Assembly (NCBI GenBank): GCA_001820255.1
Contig: MHPA01000016.1
Coordinates: forward strand, 7,288 to 58,758
Source: Candidatus Staskawiczbacteria bacterium RIFCSPLOWO2_01_FULL_38_12b
Lineage (GTDB): Bacteria; Patescibacteriota; Minisyncoccia; Minisyncoccales; Staskawiczbacteraceae
Direction of reading: 5' to 3'
Length of the DNA: 51,471 bases
In this document: one piece after another, positions 4,539 to 50,987 of the stretch
Numbering within the stretch: the stretch's first letter is position 1
How the letters are laid out: each line of letters starts with the position of its first letter
Program-made: the position numbers and the translations under genes
Notes under the pieces: model-generated
What the model was told of the DNA's origin: nothing
The model's database searches: none
Seen by the model: only the letters and a program-made list of their open reading frames with translations

Positions 4539-4545
4539 GGTTTAT

Positions 4546-10093: not shown

Positions 10094-10103
10094 ATATACG
10101 AAT

Positions 10104-11168: not shown

Positions 11169-11180
11169 AACTTAAATGAC

Positions 11181-11635: not shown

Positions 11636-11654
11636 AATTTCTTGTGAGAAATTT

Positions 11655-11735: not shown

Positions 11736-11740
11736 GTTTT

Positions 11741-13462: not shown

Positions 13463-13488
13463 GTTCTTTAAGTTTCAAGCTTTAAGTT

Positions 13489-13893: not shown

Positions 13894-13945
13894 ATTCTAG
13901 GGATTTTTCTCAATTTTTAAGATATAAAGTTCCATATTCAAACAA

Positions 13946-14500
13946 TTAATACGTGTGGGTTTGTAATTCTAACACAAAATCATATATTTTTTGCTGGTTT
14001 TCTAAAGTGGCTACATCTTGGGAGGCGGAAGGCGACCTGAAAGAAATAGAGCTTAATTCAAATAATCGCACCGATTTATCTAATGAAGAAAGGAAATTTT
14101 TTAAACTCGCATAATTTCCCATTATATTGATTCTGAAAGTGACATTTCTAATTTTATGTTCAGCCGTAGGTGGAGAAATTTTTGAAAACGTTACTGACCT
14201 TACTATCAATCCATTTTCTTTTCCCTTTTTTTGAAAAAAGAACACCAATGGGGCAAGGGAAAAATCCGTAGGTAAGGCAGCATCAATATTTGCCAGGGAG
14301 TCTTGTTTGCTTTCTATTATAGCAACGAGATTTGCTATGTTTGAAAAATAAAGAGCCTTGCTATTATATTCTGCCTCTTTCTTATATAAGCTATTTTGCA
14401 CATCGCCAACTTCTTGGTATTTGGGAATTACAAAAAGAAATACCAATATTGATGTGATAAAAATAATGATGACCGTAGAAGTTAATTTATTTATTTCCAT
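13946..14500 (-). CDS. PilO-like pilus alignment protein
   Basis: 184 aa. N-terminal TM, a coiled-coil segment, then ALPTDFSLAPLVFFFQKKGKENGLIVRSVTF. The position after the pilN-like gene fits pilMNO order. Confidence 0.55.
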   Translation of the reverse strand: MEINKLTSTVIIIFITSILVFLFVIPKYQEVGDVQNSLYKKEAEYNSKALYFSNIANLVAIIESKQDSLANIDAALPTDFSLAPLVFFFQKKGKENGLIVRSVTFSKISPPTAEHKIRNVTFRINIMGNYASLKNFLSSLDKSVRLFELSSISFRSPSASQDVATLENQQKIYDFVLELQTHTY

Positions 14501-14505
14501 GATTA

Positions 14506-15132
14506 TTAATTACTGATGTCGCTTGAACTTAATGGACTTTCGCCAACATCTGTTTGCTCGCTTGATGGTGCTTGGTAAAAACCAACAAAACCATTGGGGT
14601 AATAACTAAAGAGGGCGGGATGCAAAGAAAGCTCCAGGGTAAATGTAGTTTTTCCATTTCCAGAAACCTGGGAATTTAAAACATCAACAGCATTAATATA
14701 GTCCTTGCTATCCTCAAATATATGCACTTGATGGCTTAGTATTTCCATATTTTCTGACTCTCCGGATAATCTAACCTTGTTTTGAACTTCAGAAACATCA
14801 AAACTTGAAAACCAGACTTTTGGCAAAGTTTTTTGTTCTATGAAGCTAAAAATATTGGAAGAAATCTTGTGGTTGTCAACAAGGATATTGAATTCTTCTA
14901 TTTTTCTTTTGTAATCAAGCACTTTTTTTTCATTTGCTTTTTCCTGCTCGGTGCCATAGGCAAGCATTTTTTCTTCAAGCTTGCTTATCTTTTGATGCTG
15001 GACATATATTTTAACCGTAAAAAGGAGGTAACAAAAAATAGCGATCAGCAATAATCCGAATGCAGCATAAAAAACAGGATCCATCCATTTTAATTGCTTG
15101 TCTTTTAATTGGTACAATGATCGAAAATTCAT
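14506..15132 (-). CDS. PilN-like pilus alignment protein
   Basis: 208 aa. Short cytoplasmic N-terminus, one TM (VFYAAFGLLLIAIFCYLLF) and a coiled coil. It lies directly downstream of pilM. Confidence 0.5.
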   Translation of the reverse strand: MNFRSLYQLKDKQLKWMDPVFYAAFGLLLIAIFCYLLFTVKIYVQHQKISKLEEKMLAYGTEQEKANEKKVLDYKRKIEEFNILVDNHKISSNIFSFIEQKTLPKVWFSSFDVSEVQNKVRLSGESENMEILSHQVHIFEDSKDYINAVDVLNSQVSGNGKTTFTLELSLHPALFSYYPNGFVGFYQAPSSEQTDVGESPLSSSDISN

Positions 15133-15144
15133 AGTTAATTAAAT

Positions 15145-15263
15145 CAGAAATTCGAATGTCGAAATTCGAAAAAAATTTAAATTACCAAAATTCAAAATCT
15201 AAAATGCATTTTAGTTATTTAAAGATTTGGATTTTTGATTTGTTTCGGATTTCGAGTTTCGTG
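15145..15263. repeat. Imperfect hairpin with 7-nt periodic arms (GAAATTC / GAATTTC-type units)
   Basis: The left arm reads GAAATTC GAATGTC GAAATTC GAAAAAA ... AATCTAA AATGC. The right arm reads GCATTTT AG... GATTTGT TTCGGAT TTCGAGT TTCGTG. The centre is AAAATGCATTTT. Confidence 0.7.
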
Positions 15264-15298
15264 CTTCAAGCTTACTTCATTATACACCAAAAATAATA

Positions 15299-16366
15299 CT
15301 ACTTCTCCAGTCCTCCCAAGGCCACCCCTGTCGCCGCTGAAAACCTGGGAGCCATTATCTTAAGGGTTTGGTCAAGAATCGGGGGGTATAAAAATTCTGA
15401 AAAACAATTTGGAACGTATACTTCTTTTTTAAGGCTTTCGGCAAAATACTCTTTTAATCCCGGCAGATTGGCCGTGCCTCCTGTCAAAAAAATTTCGTCA
15501 ATTTGCTTTTGCCCTCCGTGCAAAAACTCAGCACAAACGCCTTTTATTTCAATTAAGAGGGGAGACAATAAAAGATATAAGGTTTTAACTACGTCGCTTC
15601 TTGGATGCAAAAGTCCTTCTTTATTTTTTATGTTTTCTGCTTGATCCAAAGCTACCCCCAATCCAGAAGAAACCACATTTGATAATTGGCTGCTGTTAAA
15701 GGTGAAACTGTAGCTCTTTTTTAAAAAACCTTTTTCAATAATGTTTATGGTTGAACTCTGAACTCCGATATCCACCAAGCAGACTATTTTTTTATTATTT
15801 CTTATCAACGCCCTGGTAATACCCAGCGCTTCGGCTTCCAGGGCGTATAACTGGAGACCGGCCATTTTTGCCATGGCCTGATACTCTTGGATCACTTGAT
15901 TTGGCACCGCCAGTAAAAATACTCCAAATGAAGAATTTTTACTACCGGGTGAATTTGGCATTATCTTCCAATCCAAGGTAACCTCCGAAATGGGCAGGGT
16001 GATGTATTGAGATGCATTATAACGGATGGCTTCCGGAATTTCTTTTTCCGTCATAAAAGGAATATCAAACGAAGTGCAAAATGTGGAAAAATCAGGTATG
16101 GAAAAAATGGCTTCTTTTGTTTTTATTTTTGCCTCCTCTAAAATTCCCCGTATGGCCTCTGAAGTAACATTATTTGAAAGCAAGTAACTGCCCTTTTGGG
16201 TATTTGACAAGGATTCCTTGTAAAGATATTCTGATTTTATCTCGCCGTAATTTTCCAATGTTTTGCCTTCCCCCCAGCGGGAAATTTCCACCACCTTAAC
16301 AGAGGAAGTGCCAATATCCACCCCGATCATTTTTTTAGGGAAAAACATTTTAAAGGGATTAAACAT
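15299..16366 (-). CDS. pilM: Type IV pilus assembly protein PilM (actin-like ATPase fold)
   Basis: 355 aa. IGVDIGTSSVKVVEI phosphate-1 motif, VCLVDIGVQSSTINI, and IFLTGGTANLPGL. Confidence 0.85.
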   Translation of the reverse strand: MFNPFKMFFPKKMIGVDIGTSSVKVVEISRWGEGKTLENYGEIKSEYLYKESLSNTQKGSYLLSNNVTSEAIRGILEEAKIKTKEAIFSIPDFSTFCTSFDIPFMTEKEIPEAIRYNASQYITLPISEVTLDWKIMPNSPGSKNSSFGVFLLAVPNQVIQEYQAMAKMAGLQLYALEAEALGITRALIRNNKKIVCLVDIGVQSSTINIIEKGFLKKSYSFTFNSSQLSNVVSSGLGVALDQAENIKNKEGLLHPRSDVVKTLYLLLSPLLIEIKGVCAEFLHGGQKQIDEIFLTGGTANLPGLKEYFAESLKKEVYVPNCFSEFLYPPILDQTLKIMAPRFSAATGVALGGLEK

Positions 16367-17334: not shown

Positions 17335-18906
17335 CTAAAGATCGTTTCCCGAATAAGACAAATTAAAACTTTTGTTAATTAAAGGAAAATCCGGCACCAC
17401 ATTTAAAGGACCAGCTTCTCCAACCAAGGACCAATTTAAAAATGACGGATCACAGGGCGCAACCCTGCTTATGTTCCCCGCCAAGTCAGTGGTGATAACA
17501 TATATTATTTGACCTCTCCATCCTTCAACCATGCCAATGGCCAGGGCATTTTTTTTAAATACCGTGGTATTGCGAGGGGTCAAGATGGGGCCCTTCGGTA
17601 ATTTAGTTAATGCATTTTGAATAAGGTTCATTGAAGCATAGACTTCTTTAACACGGACCCGAAATCGGGCATACACATCACCGCCCGACTCAGTTTCGAT
17701 GGTATTAAAACCTAATTCATCATAGGCCGCATAGGGAAAATCAACACGTATATCGCTCAAAATGCCCACTGCTTTGGCGGCAACCCCCAGGGCGCCGTAA
17801 TCTTTAGCGGTTTTTGGCAAAAGCACGCCGGTGCCTTTTAATCGATTTAAAAGCGAGGCGCTATTTTGGGCAATTGCAATGATTTCAAAAAAATCTTTTT
17901 GTATCTTTTCAAGGTCTTTGCCTAAAACAATTATTTCTTTGGCATTAATGTCTTTGGTAACTCCTCCAATAGTGTTTACATTGCGCAAAAATCGGCTTTT
18001 GGTCAGCCTTTCATTAATTTGCATGATCATTTCTCGTAACCTTGCCCCATTTGCACCGCCAAAATTAAATCCCGTATCAATCATGATGGCGCCAATATCG
18101 CCAAAATGGTTTGCCAGCCTTTCTAATTCTGCATATATAACGCGTAAATAAAGAGCACGTTTTGGAGGCAAAGCATCGCTTAATTGTTCTGCCGCTTGGC
18201 AAAAAGCCAATGAATGGCTAAACGAACTATCACCGGAAATTTTCTCACAAAGACGTAATTTATTACTAAGGGGAAGCGTTTCAAATAACTTTTCACTGCC
18301 TTTATGGACAAATCCAAGTTTTGCTTCCAAGAGCATAATTTCTTCTCCAGCCACGCTAAACCTAAAGTGGCCCGGCTCTATGATTCCCGCATGGATCGGG
18401 CCGACGGGAATTTCATATATCCCTTCACCCTCAACTTTTTGGAATTGATAAGTTCCATGGATTTCTTTTACTTTTGTCTGCCAGTCAAAATCCTTTCTTA
18501 ATGGGAATAGATTAGCCGGCCAGTTTTCATGCAAAATGATGGGTCGCAGGTCGGGATGCAAAACAGGAGTGAGGCCAAAAAAAGTGTGTATCTTTTTTTC
18601 AAAATTACAAGCGCTATGGATAGCCGGGGTCAGTGAAGGAAATGTAACGGTATTTTGCAGACGAATAAAAGGCACCACAAACATATTTTTTTTTGAAATG
18701 CCAAACACATACCAAATTTTAAACCCCTCTTTTTCTGCTCTTTCGTCAGTTGCGGTGATTAGGTGCAGTGGCAGGTTTTTATTAGCATGCAAATTAGTTG
18801 CGATTTCTTTGATATGCAAAGCTGGCACTTCAAAGAAAGCGATATTGCCGCAAATTTCAACTTTTACGTTTTTGGGGAGGTATTGTTGTATGTCTTCTAT
18901 ATTCAT
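17335..18906 (-). CDS. Fused NuoC-like / [NiFe]-hydrogenase large-subunit-like protein (HycE/HyfG/NuoD family) lacking all four metal-binding Cys
   Basis: The N-terminal 30-kDa (NuoC) domain is followed by YEIPVGPIHAGIIEPGHFRF. The L1 position reads EKISGDSSFSHS instead of ERxCGxCSxxHS. The C-terminus reads SFNLSYSGNDL instead of S.DPCxxCxDR. Start chosen at the Met at 18906, because the track start overlaps the upstream gene. Confidence 0.85.
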   Translation of the reverse strand: MNIEDIQQYLPKNVKVEICGNIAFFEVPALHIKEIATNLHANKNLPLHLITATDERAEKEGFKIWYVFGISKKNMFVVPFIRLQNTVTFPSLTPAIHSACNFEKKIHTFFGLTPVLHPDLRPIILHENWPANLFPLRKDFDWQTKVKEIHGTYQFQKVEGEGIYEIPVGPIHAGIIEPGHFRFSVAGEEIMLLEAKLGFVHKGSEKLFETLPLSNKLRLCEKISGDSSFSHSLAFCQAAEQLSDALPPKRALYLRVIYAELERLANHFGDIGAIMIDTGFNFGGANGARLREMIMQINERLTKSRFLRNVNTIGGVTKDINAKEIIVLGKDLEKIQKDFFEIIAIAQNSASLLNRLKGTGVLLPKTAKDYGALGVAAKAVGILSDIRVDFPYAAYDELGFNTIETESGGDVYARFRVRVKEVYASMNLIQNALTKLPKGPILTPRNTTVFKKNALAIGMVEGWRGQIIYVITTDLAGNISRVAPCDPSFLNWSLVGEAGPLNVVPDFPLINKSFNLSYSGNDL

Positions 18907-18920
18907 AATGATGGGTACGT

Positions 18921-20390
18921 TTAATAATGCGCAGCGATATTGCCAAGCAATGTATATAAAAATGGCGGAATGTAAAAACTCAAACATAACACCAAAATAA
19001 TAAGCATGGCAGGGGGAAGCAAGAGCCAAATACTTTCTTTTTCTGTTTTCATATCGGCGGGAGCCTGTCCAAACACCATGGCGCTGGCGTGTTTTAAAAA
19101 GCCGATAAATAAAATCGTCATCAATACTATAATCGTAACAACGATAAAAAGATGGTTTTTGATGCCGGCAGAAAGAATGAATAGTTTAGTAAAAAATATT
19201 CCAAATGGAGGCGCACCGGTTATGGCAAAAAATCCGGTCAAAAAGAGTGCCGCCGTAATGGGAATAGTACTCATCGCCCCTTTGACATTGGCGATTTTGG
19301 CAGAATGATATTTAAGAAGCAGATTCCCTGATGAGAAAAAAAGCGCCGATTTAATAAAAGAATGGTATATCATGTGAAGCATGGCCGCAAAAATACCCAA
19401 TCCCCCAAACCCAAAACCAAGAGCCATGATTCCCGCATTTTCAATGCTTGAGTAAGCCAATACCCTCTTGTAATTCCTGGCAACAAAGATAATGGCCGCG
19501 GCAATGGCTACTGACAGCAAACCAAACGCCATAAATAAATTTTGGCTAAATGACGGCCCTGCCACCGCATCGGTTATTATTTTAAATTTCAAAATAATGG
19601 CAAAAGCAACCGGCAATAAGGCTCCCGAAAATAATGCGCCAATAGGAGCAGGTGTTTTACTGTAAGCATCCGGTTTCCAGGTATGCATTGGAGCAAATCC
19701 CACTTTAGTTCCATAACCCACAAAGACAAAGATAAAAGCCACTTTAATAACCAAAGGGTCAAGGCTGGCGGCATTTGCGGCAAGCGCCTGCCAGCTGACA
19801 AGCTCGTTTGCGGGAAACAAATTAGCGGCGGGAAAAAACAACAACGTCCCAAAAAATGCCAGCAGTATGCCAACAGAATTGATGATTAAATATTTCCATG
19901 CGCCTTCAATAGCGGAGGGCTTATTATAAAAACTGATTAAAAACGCTGTAGAAAGGGTGGTAGCTTCAATAAAAATCCAAGCAAATATGGGGCTGGAAAC
20001 GGTAATAGCCAAAAACATCATCGCCATAAAAAGATTCAATAAAATAAAGTATTCCCTTACCCTTGACTGCAGATGGCTTACCCCTGAAAATCCGATGATA
20101 TTTTTAGCGGTTTCTTGGCGAAGGTACTCAATAGAATACACGGTCGCAGCAAAACCGACAAACGCAATAATAAGCATCACCACGGCTGCCAGCGCATCCA
20201 CAGAAAAAAATGAAGAATCGTACGTGCCAAAACGGGCAACCTGAAAAGAAATACTCATTGACGCCAATAATGCAACGCCCGAAGCAATCAGCGAAGAGAT
20301 TTCAATAACCCTTCTATGCCCAGACAAAAGGCACAGCAGTGTTGCGATAAAAAAAGAAATAAAAATAAATAGTAATTCTGTATTGTACAT
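18921..20390 (-). CDS. Proton-conducting antiporter-like subunit (HyfF / NuoN / MrpD family)
   Basis: 489 aa, about 14 TM segments, with the motifs GAPPFGIFFTKL and MHTWKPDAY typical of NuoM/N/Mrp-type subunits. Confidence 0.85.
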   Translation of the reverse strand: MYNTELLFIFISFFIATLLCLLSGHRRVIEISSLIASGVALLASMSISFQVARFGTYDSSFFSVDALAAVVMLIIAFVGFAATVYSIEYLRQETAKNIIGFSGVSHLQSRVREYFILLNLFMAMMFLAITVSSPIFAWIFIEATTLSTAFLISFYNKPSAIEGAWKYLIINSVGILLAFFGTLLFFPAANLFPANELVSWQALAANAASLDPLVIKVAFIFVFVGYGTKVGFAPMHTWKPDAYSKTPAPIGALFSGALLPVAFAIILKFKIITDAVAGPSFSQNLFMAFGLLSVAIAAAIIFVARNYKRVLAYSSIENAGIMALGFGFGGLGIFAAMLHMIYHSFIKSALFFSSGNLLLKYHSAKIANVKGAMSTIPITAALFLTGFFAITGAPPFGIFFTKLFILSAGIKNHLFIVVTIIVLMTILFIGFLKHASAMVFGQAPADMKTEKESIWLLLPPAMLIILVLCLSFYIPPFLYTLLGNIAAHY

Positions 20391-20415
20391 ATAGTTTACT
20401 TTAAATTACTTCAAA

Positions 20416-21063
20416 CTAATCTTTTAATTTCCTCATATCGGTGACATCAAGCGATCCAAAATGCTGGTAAATCATTGATACAAACATGGTGGCGATAATG
20501 AGCCAGATAGAAATATCAAACAGAATGCCAATCTGCAAGCTGGGCGATTGTTCCAGTCCGGCAAAAATAGCAAAAGCCACAATACTGTTTTCCAGCGAAA
20601 GAATACCGATGATTTGCGATAGTGCGCTTTTACGGTTGATAATCAAAAAAAGTGATAAAAAAATCATAGAAAGCGCCAGCGAAAGCAACATTTCATGAGC
20701 AGGAATAATACTGGTAAGCGGTGCGAATCTATAAGAATGGGCTATGGCGGCAAGCATGGCTAAAATCGCAAGCGTAATAGGAGTATTTAAATAGGTGCTT
20801 GCGGAAAATATCAATTCATTTTTTTTAATTAATCTGATAAAAAATCCTGGCGCCAAAATTACCTTGACGGTAAATACCAACAAAGCAATAAACAACAGCG
20901 AAATATAACCGGTTTCAAAAAAGGAATTAAGCAACAGTATCACGATGGTAAAAGACTGGACTGCGTATGCAAAAACCGCATCAAGGTTCTTTTTTGAAAT
21001 ATGCAAAAAGACAATGGTTAAAAAAATGATTTGCAATAAAAATTGTAAAAATAAAATATTCAT
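20416..21063 (-). CDS. Hydrogenase-4 component E-like small membrane subunit (HyfE / NuoK-related)
   Basis: 215 aa, about 7 TM segments, sitting between the HyfC-like and HyfF-like genes as in hyf operons. Confidence 0.65.
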   Translation of the reverse strand: MNILFLQFLLQIIFLTIVFLHISKKNLDAVFAYAVQSFTIVILLLNSFFETGYISLLFIALLVFTVKVILAPGFFIRLIKKNELIFSASTYLNTPITLAILAMLAAIAHSYRFAPLTSIIPAHEMLLSLALSMIFLSLFLIINRKSALSQIIGILSLENSIVAFAIFAGLEQSPSLQIGILFDISIWLIIATMFVSMIYQHFGSLDVTDMRKLKD

Positions 21064-21076
21064 TTAACAAATAGAA

Positions 21077-22009
21077 TTAATGTATCAGAATAATAGCCAC
21101 GACGTTAAAAATAAAAGCAATAATTAAAAGATCGGGCAAGCGAAAAAATCGAAACTTGGCGATACTCGATTCTAATACGGCAATCACCAAGCAAAAAATA
21201 ACTATTTTTATCATAAAAATAACCATGCCCAGCATAACTGCACTAATACCGGCACTTTGGGCTATACCCAAAGGAAAAAACAGATTGGAGGCTAAGGCGA
21301 TAAAAATAAGAAGTTTGTTGGCCGACGCCCATTCCATAAGCGCTAATTTTTTCCCTGAATACTCTAAAATCATCGCTTCATGGATCATGGTCAACTCCAA
21401 ATGGGTGGCCGGATTATCAAAAGGGAAACGGGCGGTTTCAGCTAGTAATACTATAAAAAACCCGAAAAAGGCAAGGGTGCCGGAAAGCAAATATTGGCTC
21501 TGGTAAAGTAAGCCGGTTTGGGAAATGGTAAACACATTAGTACTACCGCTAATAAGCGCGACCGTTAATAGTGAAAAAATAAATCCTCCTTCTGCCAAAG
21601 CAGCTACCGTCATTTCGCGGCTTGAGCCAAATCCCCCAAATGCACTGCCGGTATCAATCCCCGCCAGTGCCAAAAAGAATGTGCCAATGGCAAGGGTGTA
21701 TATGATAATCAACAAGTCCCCGGTAACAGTATTATTAATAAATGATGCAAAAAGCGGAATGCTTGCCCCTATGATAATGGTTACGGTAAAAACAATATAG
21801 GGTGCGCATCGGAAAATCCACGAAGCATCTTTGCTTATTACTTCATCTTTATGGAAAAGTTTCCATAAATCCTGGTATGGCTGGAAAATTCCGGCTCCTT
21901 GGCGATTTTGAAGTTTGGCTTTTATTTTTCTGATAATGCCAACACAAAGCGGCGCCACGGCTGGCACCAATATAATTTGAATTATCCAAATAATAATATC
22001 AATAAACAT
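21077..22009 (-). CDS. NuoH / HycD / HyfC-family membrane subunit
   Basis: 310 aa. RFPFDNPATHLELTMIHEAMILEYSG matches the conserved NuoH/HycD loop (PFD..E.E.EL..G...EYSG). Confidence 0.85.
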   Translation of the reverse strand: MFIDIIIWIIQIILVPAVAPLCVGIIRKIKAKLQNRQGAGIFQPYQDLWKLFHKDEVISKDASWIFRCAPYIVFTVTIIIGASIPLFASFINNTVTGDLLIIIYTLAIGTFFLALAGIDTGSAFGGFGSSREMTVAALAEGGFIFSLLTVALISGSTNVFTISQTGLLYQSQYLLSGTLAFFGFFIVLLAETARFPFDNPATHLELTMIHEAMILEYSGKKLALMEWASANKLLIFIALASNLFFPLGIAQSAGISAVMLGMVIFMIKIVIFCLVIAVLESSIAKFRFFRLPDLLIIAFIFNVVAIILIH

Positions 22010-22011
22010 GG

Positions 22012-24060
22012 TTATAATACAAAAAGCAATGAGATTATTAGGGCAATAAAAATATAAAGAATATACATATTGGTATTGCCACTTTGAATGCTTTTCACCC
22101 GTAAAGCTATGAGGCTAACCATTCGGTTAAGCGGTTGGTAAAAATAAGACTGATAGACATCTTGGACTCCCAAAGTAATGGTACGGGACTTTGGCAAATA
22201 CCGGCTTTGCGCATCATGGTATTCAATGTCATGTTGGATGCTAGGCCTTAAAATACCCTTAAAAATAGTAACAATTGAGCGGGAGAATCCCGTAGCGGTT
22301 ATTTCCATGCGGCCGGTTAAATCAGTTCCGCAATCCCAGGTCGCTCCAGTTTCAATTTTTTGATTTTTATTAATAACAAATGTAACAATATAAAACACCA
22401 AGCCGGCCACAAACACAAAACATATACATAAAAAAAGTAAAGAAACAGATCCAAAATTATTCCCCACGACAACCTGTTGGCCGGATGATGAGATTAAAGA
22501 AGCGGTACCTTTAAAAATAGCAAGGTTTTTCCCGACGCTTTCCAAAAACACCACTACATGTGAAGATCCTATTCCAAACAGAAGGCATAGCAGTGCCATT
22601 GCACCCATCCCAATACGCAAAGAAAGGGAAGATTCTTTAGCGCCGCTTGTGTGACTGCTTCTTGGGCGGGCTAAAAATGTCACCCCGAAAGCTTTGACAA
22701 AACAAGCTAGCGCCAATCCGCCGGTAAATGCCAGTGAGCCGGCAGCCAAAATAAAAATCCATTTTTCATACAAAGATAATGATGCTATCCCCAAAAAAAG
22801 CGACTGAAAGGTTAGCCATTCACTGAAAAATCCATTAAAGGGAGGAAGCGCAGATATTGCCATGGATCCGACAAGAAAAAAGAATGCGGTGTAGGGCATA
22901 TATTTAATAAGGCCTCCATATTCTTCTATGTTGCGTGTATGCGTTTGATTAATAACGGAACCGGCGCCCAAAAAAAGCAGGGATTTAAACGTGGCGTGAT
23001 TTAAGGTGTGGAAAAGCGCGGCAGTAAGGCTTAAAAGCGCCAGCGGCAACATATTAAGCGACAAAAAAGTCAGCGCACCGCCAAGCCCCAGCAAAATAAT
23101 GCCGATATTTTCTATGCTGTGGTAGGCCAACAGCCTTTTTATGTCATGTTCGGTAAGCGCATACAGCACTCCCAGCAAAGAAGATATTGAACCCAAAACA
23201 AGCAACGCAAGCCCCCACCACACCGGAACCGGCCAAAGCATGCCAAAGAAAATCCTGATCATCATATAAATGCCGGTTTTAATCATTACGCCAGACATTA
23301 ATGCCGAAACATGCGAAGGGGCGGCCGGATGGGCATCGGGAAGCCAAATATGAAACGGGACAATACCGCATTTTGTGCCAAAACCAATAATAGTGAAAAT
23401 AAAAATCGTATTTTTTATGGATAAGGGAATAGAAGAAGCGCCAGATTGTATAGCCTCAAATTCAAACGAACCGGTAAATTTATATAACAATAAAGCGGCG
23501 GTTATAATAAAAGCCGTGCCGACATGAGTCATAATGAGATATAAAAAACCGGCTTTCACGTTTTGCGGGTCGTTACGATCGTAGACCACTAAAAAATATG
23601 ACGTAATAGACATGACCTCCCAAGCAATCAGAAAAAAGAGCCAATTTGAAGAAGATACCACTAAAAGCATTCCTAAAATAAACAGGTTATAAAAAAATCC
23701 GAGAGCGCCAATATCATACTTTTTATAAAAATGCTTCACGTATCCGATAGCATACACAGAACAAAAAAGAGAAATTAATGAAATAATAAAAATAAAAAAG
23801 GCGGACAACTTGTCGATATGAAAAGATAACGAAAAAAACGGCACAGCAAATGCGCCCAAAGAAAAAGACAAGTCATCGCCGCCAGACGCCATTAACGCTA
23901 CAAAAAAAAGTCCAGAGAGGGATCCCAATATAGCAAAAAAATGACTCCAAATATTGGCAAACGTATCGTGCTTTCTCAATAATAAAGCTCCGATACCTCC
24001 TATGGCAAAAAATGATAATACTGCGACAAAAGTTATTTGAGAAATAATACTATTTATCAT
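22012..24060 (-). CDS. NuoL / HyfB / HycC-family antiporter-like subunit
   Basis: 682 aa, more than 15 TM segments, with FHIWLPDAHPAAPSHVSALMSGVMIKTGIY and HTLNHATFKSLLFLGAGSV motifs. Confidence 0.85.
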   Translation of the reverse strand: MINSIISQITFVAVLSFFAIGGIGALLLRKHDTFANIWSHFFAILGSLSGLFFVALMASGGDDLSFSLGAFAVPFFSLSFHIDKLSAFFIFIISLISLFCSVYAIGYVKHFYKKYDIGALGFFYNLFILGMLLVVSSSNWLFFLIAWEVMSITSYFLVVYDRNDPQNVKAGFLYLIMTHVGTAFIITAALLLYKFTGSFEFEAIQSGASSIPLSIKNTIFIFTIIGFGTKCGIVPFHIWLPDAHPAAPSHVSALMSGVMIKTGIYMMIRIFFGMLWPVPVWWGLALLVLGSISSLLGVLYALTEHDIKRLLAYHSIENIGIILLGLGGALTFLSLNMLPLALLSLTAALFHTLNHATFKSLLFLGAGSVINQTHTRNIEEYGGLIKYMPYTAFFFLVGSMAISALPPFNGFFSEWLTFQSLFLGIASLSLYEKWIFILAAGSLAFTGGLALACFVKAFGVTFLARPRSSHTSGAKESSLSLRIGMGAMALLCLLFGIGSSHVVVFLESVGKNLAIFKGTASLISSSGQQVVVGNNFGSVSLLFLCICFVFVAGLVFYIVTFVINKNQKIETGATWDCGTDLTGRMEITATGFSRSIVTIFKGILRPSIQHDIEYHDAQSRYLPKSRTITLGVQDVYQSYFYQPLNRMVSLIALRVKSIQSGNTNMYILYIFIALIISLLFVL

Positions 24061-24217
24061 ACCTCTAAGAAACTGTTTAGTAACCCCATATTTGCGCTAA
24101 AGTTATTTTTCCCGGCTGCAAATTTGCTGTCATTCGTCGGCTTGCCACACGGGCAAACCTCCTTACGCTATCAAATTTTCGCTCAGGAAAAAAAACTTTA
24201 TCATCAAAAGAGGGTTA

Positions 24218-24745
24218 TTAAACAGTTTCTAATATTTCAAGAATATGTAAAAGTCCGTAAAGAATTGCTTTAGGGCTTGGCGGATCTCCCGGAATAGCAT
24301 AATCTACCGGTATCAGGGCATTGACTCCACCAACAACCGCATAAGAATTTTTATAGATACCGCCGTCTATGGCATCATCGCCAACCGCTACTACAATTTT
24401 TGGATTAGGGGTTGCTTGGTAAGCTCTTGTTAAAGCTTCTGCCATATTACAAGTTACCGGACCGGTTACCAAAAGCATATCCGCATGCCTTGGCGAAGCA
24501 ACAAAATGGATTCCAAAACGCTCAATATCATAAAAGGCATTGGAAAGAGCAACCAGTTCCTGTTCGCAAGCGTTATCGGAACCGGCATCTACTTGCCGTA
24601 TCGCCAAGGAACCCTTAAATAATTTCCTTACCTTTTGTTGTATTTTTTCACCGATAACGATAATTTCCGTTTGCTCTTTGGTAATCTCGGTTTTTGAAAT
24701 AGTGAGCCTTGGATTTTTTAGTATTTTTAAAAAAAGTTTAAACAT
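24218..24745 (-). CDS. NuoB / HycG-like small subunit with Fe-S ligands replaced (Cys to Asp at 3 of 4 positions)
   Basis: DIERFGIHFVASPRHADMLLVTGPVT is the NuoB/HycG core. The ligand positions read GSDNACE (canonical GSCNGCE), VGDDAIDGG (G.CA..GG) and IPGDPPSP (PGCPP.P). Confidence 0.85.
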   Translation of the reverse strand: MFKLFLKILKNPRLTISKTEITKEQTEIIVIGEKIQQKVRKLFKGSLAIRQVDAGSDNACEQELVALSNAFYDIERFGIHFVASPRHADMLLVTGPVTCNMAEALTRAYQATPNPKIVVAVGDDAIDGGIYKNSYAVVGGVNALIPVDYAIPGDPPSPKAILYGLLHILEILETV

Positions 24746-31036: not shown

Positions 31037-31185
31037 GATGAAATTCCAAATTCAAATCACCAAATCCCAAATAAATTCTAATTTTTAAATTACTAAAATC
31101 TGAAGTGTTCGTCATTGCCGCAAAAACCGCAAGTTTGCGGCACAATCCAGTTTGACTTTCGTAGTAAAAAACACTACATTTAACC

Positions 31186-31366
31186 CATGGACATCACATC
31201 CAGAAACCGCACTTAAGTCGCCGGCGGTCTGGCAATATTGGGCGGCTTGGAGCAAAAAGTTTGCGAGGCGTAGCCGTAGCTACAGCTCGCACACTTTTTG
31301 TGAAAACTGCCCAAGACTGACAAATCCGGCAAGACTTGGAGTGCGGTTTCTGGATGTGATGTCCAT
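31186..31366. repeat. Long hairpin F (arms CATGGACATCACATCCAGAAACCGCACT / AGTGCGGTTTCTGGATGTGATGTCCAT)
   Basis: 27-28-nt perfect inverted repeat. The apex CAAAAAGTTTGCGAGGCGTAGCCGTAGCTACAGCTCGCACACTTTTTG carries the same GCGTAGC...GCTAC apical motif as D and E. Confidence 0.9.
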
Positions 31367-31550
31367 ATGCCAAAATTAACTCAACAAGTTACTAAAAAAG
31401 ACATCCAAGTAAAAATATCATATTCAGACAACAGAGTAATGGGGGGTTTAGAAAAAATGGAGTTTAATGTATGTAAAAAAATTGATGCGCTTATTTTAAA
31501 ATGCGAAAATTTCTTAAAAAGGCTCTCTATAAAATATAGAGATTAACACT

Positions 31551-46021: not shown

Positions 46022-46034
46022 TTTAAATAAAAAA

Positions 46035-46073
46035 AGCCGCCCCGAACCCAATGTGGTTCTGGAGCGGCTTTTC
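46035..46073 (+). terminator. Rho-independent terminator after hsp20
   Basis: Stem AGCCGCCCCGAACC / GGTTCTGGAGCGGCT followed by TTTTCAATTTT. Confidence 0.75.
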
Positions 46074-46078
46074 AATTT

Positions 46079-46165
46079 TGGTGCGGACGGTGGGACTCGA
46101 ACCCACAAGCTCTTGCGAGCGCTAGCTCCTAAGGCTAGTGCGGTTGCCAATTTCGCCACGTCCGC
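46079..46165 (-). tRNA. tRNA-Leu (anticodon TAG), CCA encoded
   Basis: Reverse complement: acceptor GCGGACG/CGTCCGC, anticodon stem CTAGC/GCTAG with loop CTTAGGA, long variable arm, T arm GTGGG-TTCGAGT-CCCAC, then ACCA. Confidence 0.9.
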
Positions 46166-46243: not shown

Positions 46244-46681
46244 TTAATCTTCAGCACAAAAGCAACTAGAACCGCCCACGCTCGTAGAAGTGCATGTTCG
46301 CCCGGGTACACATTCTCCGCCACATGTAGGAGCAACACTCTCCCCACATGTTAGAACAGGTGTTTCCCCAATAATCTCCTCTATAATATTTACCGCGGAA
46401 AAAGCCGCTATGCCAACCGCAATTCCCACAAGCGCCCATATAAAGGCGCTTTTGCCCCTTGAAAGTTTTGCGACATCGCCGGCGGCGGTTACAAATAAAA
46501 ACCCGGCATAAATAAGCATGATCACCACTGAAGCAATAAACAACGGCCACACTATAATTTCCAACAATCTATCTATAATGCCCTTAAACCATTCGGCCGG
46601 AGTTGGCGATGCCGCCAAAGCAACCATGGGCAATAATACTAATACCATTAAAGATGCTAGTGCAATTATTTTTTTGTTCAT
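46244..46681 (-). CDS. TrbC/VirB2-like (T4SS-pilin-type) membrane protein with a C-terminal 6-Cys module
   Basis: Signal peptide MNKKIIALASLMVLVLLPMVALA, TM1 WPLFIASVVIMLIYAGFLFVTAAGD, loop VAKLSRGKS, TM2 IWALVGIAVGIAAFSAV, and tail CGESVAPTCGGECVPGRTCTSTSVGGSSCFC. Confidence 0.7.
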   Translation of the reverse strand: MNKKIIALASLMVLVLLPMVALAASPTPAEWFKGIIDRLLEIIVWPLFIASVVIMLIYAGFLFVTAAGDVAKLSRGKSAFIWALVGIAVGIAAFSAVNIIEEIIGETPVLTCGESVAPTCGGECVPGRTCTSTSVGGSSCFCAED

Positions 46682-46702
46682 TTAAGATATTACACCTTTA
46701 TT

Positions 46703-47140
46703 TTAATTACAAATACAATTTTCACTAAGGCCGACGATGCATGCTTGTCCAGCCGGACATGTTCCATCGCATGCAGGGGCAGTATCTCCGCAAACCGCGG
46801 GTGGTGGCGGTGGCGGAAAAAGAATATTGTTGACAATAAAAGGCATGGATGATGCCAGAAACGCTATAGCAAGCCCAATCGTTCCCCCTATTACCGCCTT
46901 GCCCGCTAAAGATAATTTACCTACTTCCCCATTGGCCGTTAAATATAAAAATCCGGCCCAAATAAACATTCCCATGGCAATGGCGATAAATATCGGCCAA
47001 ATAAAAGCAAAGATGCCATCAATGGCTGCCCTGATATCAAGATCGTCCCCGGGCATATCAGGATAGCTTATCGCAAAAACGGCAACGGGCAAAACCAAGA
47101 ATGTTGCCAAAGCAAATAAAACAATTATTTTTTTATTCAT
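46703..47140 (-). CDS. TrbC/VirB2-like membrane protein with poly-Pro linker and a C-terminal 6-Cys module
   Basis: Same signal-peptide/TM-loop-TM core (IWAGFLYLTANGEVGKLSLAGKAVIGGTIGLAIAF), then PPPPPPAVCGDTAPACDGTCPAGQACIVGLSENCIC. Confidence 0.7.
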   Translation of the reverse strand: MNKKIIVLFALATFLVLPVAVFAISYPDMPGDDLDIRAAIDGIFAFIWPIFIAIAMGMFIWAGFLYLTANGEVGKLSLAGKAVIGGTIGLAIAFLASSMPFIVNNILFPPPPPPAVCGDTAPACDGTCPAGQACIVGLSENCICN

Positions 47141-47158
47141 TAATATTCAAAATTAAAG

Positions 47159-47500
47159 TTATATACCAAGAGCAAATTTAACCAAAAAAGGAATGGAAAA
47201 TGCCAATACCCCTACCGCCACCCCAACCGATCCCCATATTACCGCGCTCCTTGCCCCTCCCGCCTTGGTTACATCCCCATTGGCTAATAAAAACATAAAA
47301 CCCGCAATAACAAACATGACCACCGAAAAACCGGCAAATAACGGCCATATAAAACTAAACACTGCGTCAATAATAGTCATCACATTAACATTTGCTCCTG
47401 GCGGAAAACTGGGAATATTTATGGCAAGTACCGCAACCGGTAAAAAAAGCAAGGTTAACGCAGTAAATGTGGGGGCTATTTTTTTGTTCATTATATTCAA
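47159..47500 (-). CDS. TrbC/VirB2-like membrane protein (core only)
   Basis: IWPLFAGFSVVMFVIAGFMFLLANGDVTKAGGARSAVIWGSVGVAVGVLAFSIPF. Confidence 0.7.
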   Translation of the reverse strand: MNIMNKKIAPTFTALTLLFLPVAVLAINIPSFPPGANVNVMTIIDAVFSFIWPLFAGFSVVMFVIAGFMFLLANGDVTKAGGARSAVIWGSVGVAVGVLAFSIPFLVKFALGI

Positions 47501-47550
47501 AATTTTTTAAGATGCGCTATTTAATATTCAAAAAATTTTAAAACACACAT

Positions 47551-47883
47551 TTATACATTCAACGCAAACTTAACCATAAAAGGGATGGAAAATGACAATA
47601 AACCTACTCCCACTCCAACTGAAGCCCATATCATGGCGTTTCTTGCTAATAATATTTTACCTGGCTCGCCATTTGCCGTTAAAAACATAAACGCCGCAAC
47701 AATAAACATTATCACAGAAAAACCGGCAAATAACGGCCACAAAATACTAAATATAGGGTCAAAAATATTAATAGGGGCATTTTGAATAACACCCGGTAAA
47801 GGTATTAGCGTGACCGCCAAGCTAGTTGCGGGAAACATTAACGCCATCAGTAAATAAAATAAAATAATTAATTTTTTATTCAT
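47551..47883 (-). CDS. TrbC/VirB2-like membrane protein (core only)
   Basis: MNKKLIILFYLLMALMFPATSLA ... LWPLFAGFSVIMFIVAAFMFLTANGEPGKILLARNAMIWASVGVGVGLLSFSIPF. Start set at the Met at 47883, because the longer track ORF runs into hairpin E. Confidence 0.7.
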   Translation of the reverse strand: MNKKLIILFYLLMALMFPATSLAVTLIPLPGVIQNAPINIFDPIFSILWPLFAGFSVIMFIVAAFMFLTANGEPGKILLARNAMIWASVGVGVGLLSFSIPFMVKFALNV

Positions 47884-47890
47884 GTTTTTT

Positions 47891-48097
47891 AATTTACCTT
47901 GAATTACCAAATGCTTTAGCGGTATTTTTCCCGAATTCGGAGATAGAAATTTGATCTGCCTGTGCAAAAGCAGACAGGTAGAATTTTTAGGCGTAGCTAC
48001 GCATACGCATAAAAATTATAGCAAATTTATAGCCCGAATTCGGGAAAAAGACCCGAAAATTCTTTTTCATGTGGCATTTCTAAATTCAAGGTAATTT
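47891..48097. repeat. Long hairpin E (arms AATTTACCTTGAATTACCAAATGC / GCATTTCTAAATTCAAGGTAATTT)
   Basis: Imperfect outer arms, inner arms TTTTTCCCGAATTCGG / CCCGAATTCGGGAAAAAG. The core GGTAGAATTTTTAGGCGTAGCTACGCATACGCATAAAAATTATAGCAAATTT is related to the core of B. Confidence 0.85.
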
Positions 48098-48115
48098 AAA
48101 TGACCAACTGTAAAC

Positions 48116-48166
48116 CAACTCCGTTAAAAGATGCTGCAACGGTACCCCTCGCTTTTAACGGAGTTG
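48116..48166. repeat. Hairpin (15-bp stem) downstream of the pilin-like gene at 48189-48542
   Basis: CAACTCCGTTAAAAG (48116-48130) pairs with CTTTTAACGGAGTTG (48152-48166). Confidence 0.85.
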
Positions 48167-48188
48167 ATGTATCTTTAAGATAAATTAC

Positions 48189-48542
48189 CTAAACTCCAAT
48201 GCCCGTGAACACGTTTCTTACAATATAAGGGATTGAGAATGAAATTAATGCTATGCCCAAACCCGCAACTGCCCATACAACAGATTGTCTCGCTGCTCCC
48301 ACTTTAGCTGGATCTCCACTAGATGTCAAAAACAAAAATGCCGCTATAATGAACATTATTACAGCAACTGCTGCCATTATCGGCCAAACCAAACCTAATA
48401 CGGCATTTAAAATATCCCAAACAGTAATACCGGGAACTACGTTTGGCTCAGGTATTGGGTTGAATGCGGCAAATGCAATAACCGGCGATGTTAATAGCGC
48501 AGTCAATACGGTTGAAGTTAATAAACTTAATTTTTTATTCAT
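48189..48542 (-). CDS. TrbC/VirB2-like membrane protein (core only)
   Basis: VWPIMAAVAVIMFIIAAFLFLTSSGDPAKVGAARQSVVWAVAGLGIALISFSIPY. Confidence 0.7.
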   Translation of the reverse strand: MNKKLSLLTSTVLTALLTSPVIAFAAFNPIPEPNVVPGITVWDILNAVLGLVWPIMAAVAVIMFIIAAFLFLTSSGDPAKVGAARQSVVWAVAGLGIALISFSIPYIVRNVFTGIGV

Positions 48543-48551
48543 TTTGATTTT

Positions 48552-48660
48552 TTACCCTGTTAAATACCGCAAAGCGGTAATTTCGAAATAGGGTCGCAAG
48601 AATTATCCGCTTTAGCGAACATTCTCGACCCGGTCCTGGCGAAATTATTTAACCGGGTGA
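48552..48660. repeat. Long imperfect hairpin in the spacer between pilin-like genes
   Basis: Arms TTACCCTGTTAAATA...TAATTTCG...GGGTCGCAAGAAT pair with ATTCTCGACCC...CGAAATTA...TATTTAACCGGGTGA. Confidence 0.6.
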
Positions 48661-48824
48661 ACTTTTTAATAATATAAATAGCTTTGCTATTTATGCGTTA
48701 CTATATATCGACCTTTATTTATTCAGCACCATTTTCATACTACAATCAATAATTCAAAGAATAATTATACTAAGAAAGCGGTGCTGGATTTATTAATATT
48801 ATCACACTCTTTTTATATAGGGAA

Positions 48825-49397
48825 TTAACTTGGCGGCTCTCCTATTATCACTTTTACTAAGGCAATTAATCCGTCGCCGGCCAAAGCAATAGCGGCTCCT
48901 ATTAATGCCCAAAATAATGCCTTTTTCGCTTTTTCGATTTGGTCGGCTTTGCCTGCGGCCGTTACAAAAAGAATTCCCGCCCAAACCAGCATCAATACCG
49001 CCAACGCTTTCATAATATCAAATATGTAACCGGTAATTTTTGTGATAAGCGTTGGAAAATCATTGGCACAAATAGTACTCGATCCCCCACACAAGGGATT
49101 TAATAGATTAATACCAAAACCGACAACCCCATCATCACCCCAGTCCCCACCTCCTCCACCACCATCACCATCGCCAACCCCTCCACAGGTGGAAAGCCCA
49201 GAATCCGGAACATTACAGTAACAACCTGGAGTGGATCGGCTAGGCTCAAGGTCACATTTAGTATGAGATTCAGGGTCACCAGGAAGAGGACAATCAGAAT
49301 CAGTAGCACAAAATATACCTACTTCTGAAGCCAAAATCGAACCCGCTGATCCTAAAAAAATAACTACCACTAATAATAAAAGTAAACTATATTTCAT
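48825..49397 (-). CDS. TrbC/VirB2-like membrane protein with an N-terminal Cys-rich module and a Gly/Asp linker
   Basis: After the signal peptide comes CATDSDCPLPGDPESHTKCDLEPSRSTPGCYCNVPDSGLSTCGG, then GDGDGGGGGGDWGDDG, then NPLCGGSSTICANDFPTLITKI plus the core LMLVWAGILFVTAAGKADQIEKAKKALFWALIGAAIALAG. Confidence 0.7.
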   Translation of the reverse strand: MKYSLLLLLVVVIFLGSAGSILASEVGIFCATDSDCPLPGDPESHTKCDLEPSRSTPGCYCNVPDSGLSTCGGVGDGDGGGGGGDWGDDGVVGFGINLLNPLCGGSSTICANDFPTLITKITGYIFDIMKALAVLMLVWAGILFVTAAGKADQIEKAKKALFWALIGAAIALAGDGLIALVKVIIGEPPS

Positions 49398-49466
49398 TAT
49401 ATTATGTTACAAACAATAATGCAAAGCGATATCCACACGGTCCAATAGAATCCAAATATTGCAAAA

Positions 49467-49982
49467 TTAAGCCGGTGGCTCTCCTATCACGCCTTTTACC
49501 ACCGCAATAAATCCCGTACCGGCCAATGCAATGGCGGCTCCTATGACCGCATAAAATAACACTTTTTTTGCTTTTTCAACTTGACCGGCTTTCCCCGCAG
49601 AAGTGACAAAAAGGATTCCCGCCCAAACAAACATCAATACCGCCAACGATCCGATAATGCTGACGATATAGGTGGTAATTTTAGTTATAAGACCGGGAAA
49701 ATCATTGACGCAATTAGCACTACCCGGTCCTTCAAAACACAAAGGATTAGGAAGGTTGGTGCCAACGTTATTAGAACAGTTAGGGAAGCCCGCACCCGGA
49801 TTCATACAGTAACAACCCGGAGGTGATCCAGGAGTGTAAGCACATTGAGTCTCAGTCAAAGCGCTGCCGGCAACAGGGCACTCGGAACTACTGGAACAGG
49901 GTCCGCCAGCTAAAACCAAACTCGCCGATCCTAAAAAAGCCACCGCCACAAATATAAATAATAAAAGTAAACTATGTTTCAT
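49467..49982 (-). CDS. TrbC/VirB2-like membrane protein with an N-terminal Cys-rich module
   Basis: CSSSSECPVAGSALTETQCAYTPGSPPGCYCMNPGAGFPNCSN...NPLCFEGPGSANCVNDFPGLITKI plus the core LMFVWAGILFVTSAGKAGQVEKAKKVLFYAVIGAAIALAG. It is a close paralog of 48825-49397. Confidence 0.7.
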   Translation of the reverse strand: MKHSLLLLFIFVAVAFLGSASLVLAGGPCSSSSECPVAGSALTETQCAYTPGSPPGCYCMNPGAGFPNCSNNVGTNLPNPLCFEGPGSANCVNDFPGLITKITTYIVSIIGSLAVLMFVWAGILFVTSAGKAGQVEKAKKVLFYAVIGAAIALAGTGFIAVVKGVIGEPPA

Positions 49983-49991: not shown

Positions 49992-50105
49992 TTAGAATCT
50001 TGAATATGGTATTTTGAGGCTTGAATTGAATATAGAATTTAGAATATAAAACTTGCATTCAGTGTTCTTTTTATTCTATTCTAGCTTCAAGATACAAGAT
50101 TCTAA
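49992..50105. repeat. Imperfect hairpin of TAGAAT/TTGAAT heptamer-like units
   Basis: TTAGAATCTTGAATATGG...AGAATTTAGAATATAAAAC pairs with GTTCTTTTTATTCTATTCTAGCTTCAAGATACAAGATTCTAA. Confidence 0.7.
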
Positions 50106-50122: not shown

Positions 50123-50398
50123 TTACTTTTTTGGCACATTTAGCATATTTTCAATGTAGTCCATCCGCATTGGCAATTTTTCTTCATGGTAAGTGTCAAT
50201 AAAACCATTAACTTTTTCTTTCACTTCCTTTAAATCTTTTTCAACTTTATCTAACCTGTTTTCAACTTTATCAAATCTTTCATCTACTTTGTAAAATTTC
50301 CCGTCAACATGTTCTTGAGCCGTTTGAAAACTGCCGCGTATCATCTCCGCCAATTCATTAATAGTAGTTATTTTTTTATTATCTTTTCTTGGGTCCAT
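50123..50398 (-). CDS. Small coiled-coil protein (paralog of 31551-31838)
   Basis: 91 aa: NKKITTINELAEMIRGSFQTAQEHVDGKFYKVDERFDKVENRLDKVEKDLKEVKEKV. Confidence 0.45.
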   Translation of the reverse strand: MDPRKDNKKITTINELAEMIRGSFQTAQEHVDGKFYKVDERFDKVENRLDKVEKDLKEVKEKVNGFIDTYHEEKLPMRMDYIENMLNVPKK

Positions 50399-50465: not shown

Positions 50466-50987
50466 TTACTTGACAAAAAGCAACGCGTAATGAGAGTCTG
50501 CTACTGTAAATTCTTTTTTTAGTGAAAATCCCAAGGGCGCAATGATTTTTTTTAATTGATCAGGGCTTATGGCGCCTTCTTTCGGGCCAAATGGCGCATG
50601 TTCAAACCAATCTATCACCAACAATTCTCCCCCTGACTTCAATATTCTTTTTGCTTCCTCCAGTATAGCATACTTATTTTCCACTTGAAATAAAACGCTG
50701 GGGATAAGCACCAAGTTTAAAGAATCATCCGGCAATCCAGAGGCGCTGGGCAATTCTAAATCGCAAAGCACCATTGACACATTGGTAGCATGTTTTAACC
50801 GCAACTTGGTTTTTAGTGCCGATAATTTTTCCTCCTGAATATCAAAGGCATACACCCTGCCATGGTTTAATATTTTTGCCAGAGCTATGGTAAAATCAGC
50901 CGATCCACAGCCAAACTCAGCAGCCACCATATCTTTTTTCAGGTTCAGATACTGCAATACTTCGTCTACTTTTAAAAAATCAGTCAT
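50466..50987 (-). CDS. Class I SAM-dependent methyltransferase
   Basis: Motif I VAAEFGCGSADFT, an acidic post-I residue (YAFDI), and GGELLVIDW (motif IV-like). 173 aa. Confidence 0.85.
   Translation of the reverse strand: MTDFLKVDEVLQYLNLKKDMVAAEFGCGSADFTIALAKILNHGRVYAFDIQEEKLSALKTKLRLKHATNVSMVLCDLELPSASGLPDDSLNLVLIPSVLFQVENKYAILEEAKRILKSGGELLVIDWFEHAPFGPKEGAISPDQLKKIIAPLGFSLKKEFTVADSHYALLFVK

Follow-up and report, generated by a model that had tools for sequence, protein, structure and literature searches.

A chromosomal array of seven VirB2-like pilin genes with conserved subtype order in Candidatus Staskawiczbacteria

The stretch of DNA analysed here, a 51-kb window from a Candidatus Staskawiczbacteria genome (class Paceibacteria) of Rifle aquifer groundwater, carries at 46244-49982 seven co-directional, minus-strand open reading frames (ORFs), which we number P7 to P1 in the direction of transcription. 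The evidence supports the view that the seven genes, as one chromosomal array, encode VirB2-like (PF18895) pilin subunits for the type IV secretion-like system of Patescibacteria, and we consider it moderately probable that their products are Sec-exported hairpin subunits which a type IV secretion system (T4SS) encoded elsewhere assembles into a single multi-subunit structure on the cell surface that interacts with a host. Pilin arrays in Patescibacteria are already on record (PMC12102498, PMC10633639, PMC12857230), and the array in the window is a typical example of the kind described in 2023-2025; what goes beyond the published accounts is the subtype order, the Cys-rich outer decorations, the methyltransferase partner and the multi-hairpin fusions, which are not mentioned in the array papers cited here. 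The sole genetically tractable Patescibacterium cannot live as an epibiont without its T4SS-like system and pilin array (PMC10633639, PMC11665869, PMC12857230). The window brings no new kind of system, and the comparison made here gives a testable structure to the question of what the T4SS-like system does.

Identity of the seven genes

Six of the seven genes, P2-P7, matched the Pfam family PF18895 (T4SS_pilin) at 27.3-37.8 bits, above its gathering cut-off of 26.6 bits (individual scores in Table 1). An earlier sequence-only reading of this DNA had described seven co-directional genes encoding TrbC/VirB2-like pilins, and both parts of that description hold: the ORF listing of the window places all seven on the minus strand, and the Pfam matches, together with a compatible topology, agree with the pilin call. 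P1 stayed below the cut-offs of both PF18895 and the canonical TrbC/VirB2 family PF04956 (27.9 bits), with 20.3 and 22 bits, and despite these scores it is a clear paralogue, reaching 122 bits on a profile built from the seven genes. That profile matched exactly these seven ORFs and nothing else in the window. A common core aligns across all seven, with 27-41% identity to P1 and 27-53% between pairs inside the array, and direct repeats in the DNA bear out that the genes are paralogues.

Searches outside the window place the array in a wider pilin family. An exhaustive profile search returned 53,108 family cluster representatives at E <= 0.001, the profiles of the two subtypes searched are homologous to one another (hhalign probability 99.9%), and PF18895 and PF04956 are both present in 12 of 34 relatives of P7 according to precomputed matches. 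P5 scored 34.9 bits on the NCBIfam model for the Mbov_0395 pilin-like family (NF045849), under its 40-bit cut-off. When a plasmid collection was searched by tblastn, the sole match was an unannotated gene of the actinomycete Embleya, 36% identical to P7 and scoring 63.6 bits on PF18895, which lies directly upstream of an ORF of 563 amino acids (aa), PrgI, a VirB4-like ATPase and a coupling protein (T4CP).

Public records miss the identity of the array. Its genes are labelled "hypothetical" in OGZ73045-OGZ73080 and P7 is labelled "EGF-like" in UniProt, a label that AlphaFold2 neither confirmed nor rejected, as it gave the Cys-rich module of P7 a predicted local distance difference test score (pLDDT) below 50. 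On contigs L001-L004 a 112-aa ORF on the opposite strand was called instead of P5 (48253-48591 (+) in the window; 11392-11730 in L001), and precomputed Pfam matches are absent for P1 and P2, so that automated counts would give four pilins, not seven. P4 starts at the ATG of its MNKK, and the public contigs likewise call a protein of 110 aa, never the longer ORF reaching 47967.

Layout and predicted topology of the products

By hydropathy analysis every product begins with a basic region, which leads into some 19 hydrophobic residues and then, at residues 23-25, an AxA-type site for signal peptidase I; in all seven there follow two more hydrophobic helices with a short K/R-containing loop between them. 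The mature part is predicted to be a helical hairpin with both termini outside and the short basic loop inside, and AlphaFold2 models of P5 (pLDDT 75.9, hairpin H41-73/H78-115) and P7 (hairpin H95-127/H132-166), like the topology analysis, fit the layout of signal peptide plus helical hairpin first described from the sequence. None of the seven matched the prepilin N-methylation motif PF07963, and all carry Sec-type AxA sites; the genuine type IV pilus pilins of the same window do match PF07963.

Cysteines sit solely before helix 1 (eight each in P7 and P6) or after helix 2 (six each in P2 and P1), always in even numbers. P7 has a variable 8-Cys module between signal peptide and hairpin, P6 has an 8-Cys, Gly/Asp-rich N-terminal module of its own, and the tail of P2 carries the motif CGDTAPACDGTCPAGQAC...CIC. 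All of these Cys-rich additions are thus on the predicted outer side, at the N terminus of P6 and P7 and at the C terminus of P1 and P2.

Subtypes, order and fusions

Relatives of the array were collected by scanning one genome per species with the P5 group, which yielded 18 loci at 32-54% identity to P5 from a collection that does not include the source species. Comparison with these loci indicates that the array holds at least three old subtypes in a conserved order, the same in related genomes: subtype A (P7, P6), subtype B (P5, P4, P3 and the core of P2) and subtype C (P1), with a 6-Cys-tailed last gene. The best match of P7 and P6 is always gene 1 of another array (43-57% identity; 49-57% for P7 alone against gene 1 of six related arrays), and the two form a separate clade with those genes; subtype A is marked by a conserved LPNPLC...C.NDFP loop and a hairpin of the form AGILFVTSAG...IGAAIALAG. 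P5, with the signature MNKK...WPI...FLFLTSSGDPAK...FSIPYIVRN, is 45-53% identical to orthologues elsewhere versus 39% to its nearest paralogue in the window, and is the paralogue best conserved across genomes. P1, whose subtype C signature is EWFKGIIDRLLEIIVWP, clusters with genes in late positions of four other arrays (L009_5, L008_5, L012_4 and L011_6; 43-49% identity), and the P2-type 6-Cys tail motif recurs on the last gene of L009 (11920-12426) and of L011 (11862-12290).

Some of the copies are younger than the subtypes. P6 is 53% identical to P7 and shares with it a DNA repeat of 257 nucleotides (nt), 75% identical, and is a lineage-specific duplicate of it. P3 and P4 (52% identity, connected by DNA repeats D1 and D3 at 73-79% identity) are likewise recent duplicates, each of the two pairs lying within one subtype.

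In other genomes the hairpins are joined into single chains. Gene 1 of L012 (8787-9587) is a natural fusion of subtypes A and B, its hairpins being 54% identical to P7 and 47% to P3, and more than one hairpin domain (two to eight) was found in 68 of the best 150 family representatives. In the polypilins P0056 (606 aa), P0058 (820 aa) and P0059 (552 aa) a lone signal peptide precedes six to eight hairpins and none occurs further along the chain; other multi-hairpin chains are given in Table 1. Taken together, the shared gene order, the orthology of genes in like positions and the joining of different subtypes in one chain favour co-assembly of the subunits with distinct roles.

Spacers, leader and strain variation

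The sequence-only reading had the genes separated by long hairpins, which is true of the two spacers flanking P5, both long and hairpin-rich, but not of the other junctions, which measure 18-69 nt. In the P5/P4 spacer a 20-bp near-perfect hairpin begins 18 nt past the P5 stop and is not followed by a T-run. No Rfam family matches either spacer, and no sequence conservation was found with the spacers of relatives, which have similar structured spacers within their arrays, including near-perfect hairpins of at least 40 bp between pilin genes (for example L007 9779-10000 and 10343-10620). Both spacers fold far better than shuffled sequence, but the idea that such hairpins set the array apart was rejected, as many long spacers elsewhere in the window are equally or more structured on the same measure (z to -16.7). 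We regard the hairpins as a genome-wide trait and not a matter of array design, possibly acting as terminators or RNA-stability elements. Scans for sigma-70 promoters and for terminators both stayed at background (14 sites versus 13.8 expected and 8 versus 5.2).

The six public contigs examined agree in every one of the seven coding sequences, which is weak evidence because these contigs come from one field site. Apart from differences in valS that reflect assembly quality, the only differing site among the strain contigs in an 11-kb stretch lies in the leader upstream of P7, where contigs L005 and L006 show a 7-bp indel (one ATTCTAA copy) and four single-nucleotide polymorphisms at 50016-50051. 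No tracts pointing to gene conversion were found in the array: there are no long near-identical stretches between paralogues, the longest highly similar one being 26 nt. Silent cassettes, invertible elements and recombinase genes were also looked for at the locus and none was found.

Genomic setting

Each of the 18 related loci has an array of its own, with 2-8 co-directional pilin-like genes, and in most of them the array occupies a conserved housekeeping position: gyrA, an S-adenosylmethionine (SAM) methyltransferase gene, the array, then valS and tsaD. ORFs of about 830 aa upstream of related arrays were considered as VirB4 and ruled out, all 10 of 10 being GyrA, and the ORFs of about 700 aa downstream are ValRS. 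As in the window, ValRS is encoded on the opposite strand after the array in L011, L012 and L022, with TsaD there too in L011 and L012. PrgI and a VirB4-like ATPase stand beside the array in L018 only. A position away from virB4 is therefore conserved for the array in this part of the phylum, and the term "orphan", given to it at first sight, describes an arrangement that relatives share.

VirB4, VirB6, VirD4 and relaxase genes were not found in the window, nor in the 10 kb on each side of it, which extends the absence already noted in the sequence-only reading; what lies there is FtsW, RpoB and RpoC beyond one end and, beyond the other, a Kre9-like wall protein, an intein-bearing GyrA and Cas1. 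VirB4 is present in 15 of 16 Staskawiczbacteria assemblies among those listed in Table S1 of PMC12102498, and VirB4, VirB3/PrgI and VirB6 are most likely encoded elsewhere in this genome too, "orphan" meaning only that.

The immediate flanks are those reported before: tRNA-Leu and hsp20 on one side, a 91-aa coiled-coil gene and the methyltransferase gene on the other. The terminator 3' of tRNA-Leu, read from the sequence, consists of the hairpin AGCCGCTCCAGAACC...GGTTCGGGGCGGCT followed by T7, and the array and tRNA-Leu may be transcribed together. The coiled-coil gene was found in Staskawiczbacteria-type loci only, L010 having two paralogues at the same position. The methyltransferase, which matched no specific NCBIfam family, has a homologue immediately before the array in 12 of the 18 related loci, and the first pilin gene of L008, L009 and L012 has a start that overlaps the methyltransferase stop. 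It is a conserved upstream neighbour of the array, either through a functional link or simply by inherited gyrA synteny.

In the more distant of the related loci the pilin genes have upstream of them a gene for an extracellular, membrane-anchored solute-binding protein (SBP_bac_1/8; about 430 aa), preceded by a methyltransferase homologue in four of five such loci (none was found in L020), and this neighbour is suggestive of a role in uptake. L020 also encodes, at 4803-8441, a 1212-aa protein with 74 cysteines, a PKD domain and a pilin-type hairpin at its end, which would be a pilin with an outer-side domain of very large size.

Elsewhere the window is ordinary Patescibacteria chromosome, with LigA, a complex I/Mrp-like module, ribonucleotide reductase, RecG, TsaD, ValRS, PrsW and Hsp20. 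A complete type IV pilus cluster at 2849-16366 bears out the earlier statement that the genome encodes a full type IV pilus; it contains a 23S rRNA intervening-sequence protein gene and a PaaX_M/Cas2-like gene (3641-3979 and 6549-7064). The complex I/Mrp-like module (17335-24745) comprises a fused 30-kDa/49-kDa subunit, two antiporter-like subunits and NuoH-, NuoK- and NuoB-like proteins; NuoE, F and G were not seen there, and the module is unusual for a group described as respiratory-chain-free. Just beyond the window lie a lone Cas1-like gene and the intein-interrupted GyrA gene (L001 365-931 and 3352-7110).

Table 1. Coordinates of the array genes, adjoining features and compared features of related loci. 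Positions are those of the window unless a locus (L) is named; MFE, minimum free energy.
Feature	Positions	Strand	Length (aa)	PF18895 (bits)	Remarks
P7 (array gene 1)	49467-49982	-	171	35.3	Subtype A VirB2-like pilin
P6	48825-49397	-	190	36.7	Second subtype A pilin
P5	48189-48542	-	117	37.8	Subtype B pilin
P4	47551-47883	-	110	27.3	Subtype B pilin; length from MNKK start
P3	47159-47491	-	110	28.4	Subtype B pilin
P2	46703-47140	-	145	27.8	Poly-Pro linker, C-terminal 6-Cys tail
P1 (final array gene)	46244-46681	-	145	20.3	Subtype C pilin, C-terminal 6-Cys tail
P6/P5 structured spacer	48543-48824	-			MFE -77.3 kcal/mol, z = -5.4; inverted repeats I1, I9, I16
P5/P4 structured spacer	47884-48188	-			MFE -102.8 kcal/mol, z = -7.6; inverted repeats I2, I4
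Leader upstream of P7	49983-50122	-			Moderately structured, z = -4.0
Coiled-coil protein	50123-50398	-	91		Between methyltransferase and array; weak coiled-coil-type matches only
Class I SAM-dependent methyltransferase	50466-50987	-			Pfam Methyltransf_31/11/25
tRNA-Leu(TAG)	46079-46165	-			ARAGORN and Rfam; co-directional with array, 3' of last pilin gene
tRNA plus bidirectional intrinsic terminator	46029-46165				Terminator common to tRNA-Leu and hsp20
Other structured spacer	4539-4703				z = -16.7
Other structured spacer	9901-10103				z = -13.3
Other structured spacer	31037-31550				z = -11.1
Other structured spacer	7065-7549				z = -6.6
Methyltransferase homologue	L007 8503-9030				
Methyltransferase homologue	L008 8979-9497				
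Methyltransferase homologue	L009 8867-9406				
Methyltransferase homologue	L011 8883-9425				
Methyltransferase homologue	L012 8269-8790				
Methyltransferase homologue	L016 105-623				
Solute-binding protein	L015 8030-9328				
Solute-binding protein	L020 3514-4806				
Solute-binding protein	L021 4278-5552				
Solute-binding protein	L022 7662-8987				
Solute-binding protein	L023 8113-9405				
Multi-hairpin chain	L017 630-1295				
Multi-hairpin chain	L020 8832-9578				

A proposed multi-subunit surface structure

In the mechanism we propose, Sec-type pre-proteins would be exported and cleaved by signal peptidase I, the ATPase and channel genes (VirB4, VirB3/PrgI, VirB6) being supplied from elsewhere in the genome. 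The subunits would be made together and would co-assemble in fixed roles into a single filament on the surface or a conduit across the envelope, with one major subunit and with decorated subunits in minor or tip positions, and the structure would serve contact or exchange with a host cell and would not be an interchangeable variant set. The ordered subtypes, natural fusions, outer-only additions and conserved neighbours argue for distinct roles of the paralogues in one assembly.

A more detailed version can be offered tentatively, as a possibility to which we give appreciably less credence: instead of a set of redundant pilins, the array would encode the components of a single hetero-oligomeric surface conduit, each subunit having its fixed role, together with the methyltransferase and, elsewhere, a solute-binding partner. 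Subtype A may come first in such a conduit, the expanded subtype B may form its body, and subtype C and the 6-Cys-tailed subunit may come last, the same parts perhaps being joined in other lineages as one polypeptide with as many as eight hairpins. Such a conduit may work with the conserved cytoplasmic SAM methyltransferase, to which other lineages may add the membrane-anchored solute-binding protein. If this were true, the solute-binding partner would point to the uptake of host molecules, not to export.

Several observations weigh against a surface structure built by a T4SS. No pilus is on record for any family member in the Patescibacteria T4SS literature cited here. The threshold of PF04956 was not reached by any of the seven genes (P1 22 bits, P2 18.8 bits, no match for the other five), profiles of both subtype alignments, run against every sequence in PDB, found no conjugative pilin, and a Foldseek search of PDB with the P5 model returned only unrelated helical membrane proteins (best E = 0.39), a two-helix hairpin carrying too little signal to make such a search informative. 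The window and the 10 kb past either end, about 71 kb together, contain no T4SS machinery, and the VirB4 link for this particular genome is drawn from other Staskawiczbacteria assemblies. Co-expression and co-assembly are argued solely from gene order and fusions, and the polytopic single-chain versions are equally compatible with a membrane-embedded bundle instead of an extracellular filament.

In an alternative, non-filament role the hairpins would form a membrane-embedded ring or bundle of a monoderm T4SS channel or of another envelope complex, which would keep the tie to T4SSs but would make the proteins something other than pilins in the strict sense. Such a role would accord with the general description of Gram-positive T4SSs as pilus-less, with the resemblance of six to eight concatenated hairpins (12-16 membrane helices) to polytopic membrane proteins, and with the failure to detect a solved pilin by sequence or fold. 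We nevertheless think it unlikely, as the Cys-rich and PKD-bearing extensions on the outer side suggest surface display, Pfam relates the family to TrbC/VirB2, and a pilus is held plausible in reviews, though none has been demonstrated; one review from 2025 flagged the pilin series of Southlakia epibionticum as a possible pilus in a monoderm organism.

The sequence-only reading had left two possibilities side by side, a multi-subunit assembly and a repertoire for host-attachment variation, and the evidence leans to the first and away from the second. As a repertoire the array would supply interchangeable pilin variants for surface specificity or evasion of host defence, in parallel with the virB2 paralogues of Bartonella and Anaplasma, and array paralogues as a source of variation are a matter of speculation in PMC12102498. 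The low identity between paralogues would suit such a role, as would the independent duplication of subtype B in several lineages (P4/P3 in the window, genes 2-4 of L011, genes 2-4 of L010), the strong differences in length and sequence among the N-terminal Cys-rich inserts of subtype A in relatives, and the location of the only strain polymorphism, with its indel of one repeat unit, in the leader before the first gene. Against this, genomes whose proteins share no more than some 50% identity keep the subtypes and their order, natural fusions combine different subtypes within a chain, and the strain comparison found neither differences between the coding sequences recovered (from the one field site) nor gene-conversion tracts, cassettes, invertible elements or recombinases. 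We judge a repertoire improbable, and a fixed multi-subunit assembly is favoured over it because of the subtype order, the fusions, the outer-side Cys modules and the methyltransferase partner.

It is very improbable, finally, that the genes encode small secreted membrane peptides unrelated to T4SSs (bacteriocin-, holin- or immunity-like) and match PF18895 through hydrophobic composition, for although the Pfam scores are modest (27-38 bits), hairpins are information-poor, the fold search gave only unrelated membrane proteins and no T4SS genes lie nearby, six independent above-threshold matches and relatives matching both pilin models exceed a composition effect, the family is embedded in T4SS gene clusters in the actinomycete and in L018, and the homologous array of S. 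epibionticum lies inside an essential T4SS cluster.

Comparison with known systems

The closest counterparts of the window's array are the other arrays of Patescibacteria, namely those surveyed by Quinonero-Coronel et al. (2025; PMC12102498), that of S. epibionticum and the 'Sec secreted array' of Nanosynbacter lyticus TM7x, which likewise carry PF18895, with PF04956 in relatives. The survey screened 3,035 genomes of Patescibacteria for PF18895 and PF04956 and counted 441 VirB2-like arrays, each of 2-11 genes, across 383 assemblies; of the 1,948 VirB4-positive assemblies having a pilin, 1,135 have a pilin gene near virB4 (PMC12102498). The seven genes of the window share with those arrays the tandem, co-directional layout of at least two chromosomal PF18895/PF04956 genes and a non-mobile, relaxase-free chromosomal setting, and the pattern of divergence is alike, the published within-array identity having a mean of 25% and a maximum of 54% versus the 27-53% found here. 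The difference is one of location: S. epibionticum ML1 has its six-pilin array, which is essential, inside a T4SS cluster (Wang et al., 2023; PMC10633639), whereas here and in most Paceibacteria-type loci the array stands between gyrA/methyltransferase and valS/tsaD with no VirB4 within at least 10 kb.

VirB2 of Agrobacterium, TrbC of RP4 and TraA of F resemble the array products in having a signal peptide, two hydrophobic helices, a short basic loop and termini predicted to lie on the outer side, and weak matches to PF04956 are a further resemblance. The products differ from them in that these matches are all below threshold, with no detectable likeness to solved pilins (a search for which a two-helix hairpin gives too little signal), and in that the host is monoderm, seven paralogues replace a single gene and no virB/trb operon is adjacent. 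The virB2 genes of Bartonella (Trw) and Anaplasma phagocytophilum are also tandem copies of a T4SS pilin in a cell-dependent organism; those copies are thought to diversify the surface, whereas the subtypes here appear old, ordered and conserved, without strain variation or signs of gene conversion in the coding sequences. The Mbov_0395 protein of the Mycoplasma integrative and conjugative element (NF045849) is likewise a small hairpin protein, of monoderm conjugation, to whose model P5 comes near without reaching its cut-off; it is encoded by a single gene on a mobile element, in contrast to the chromosomal array described here.

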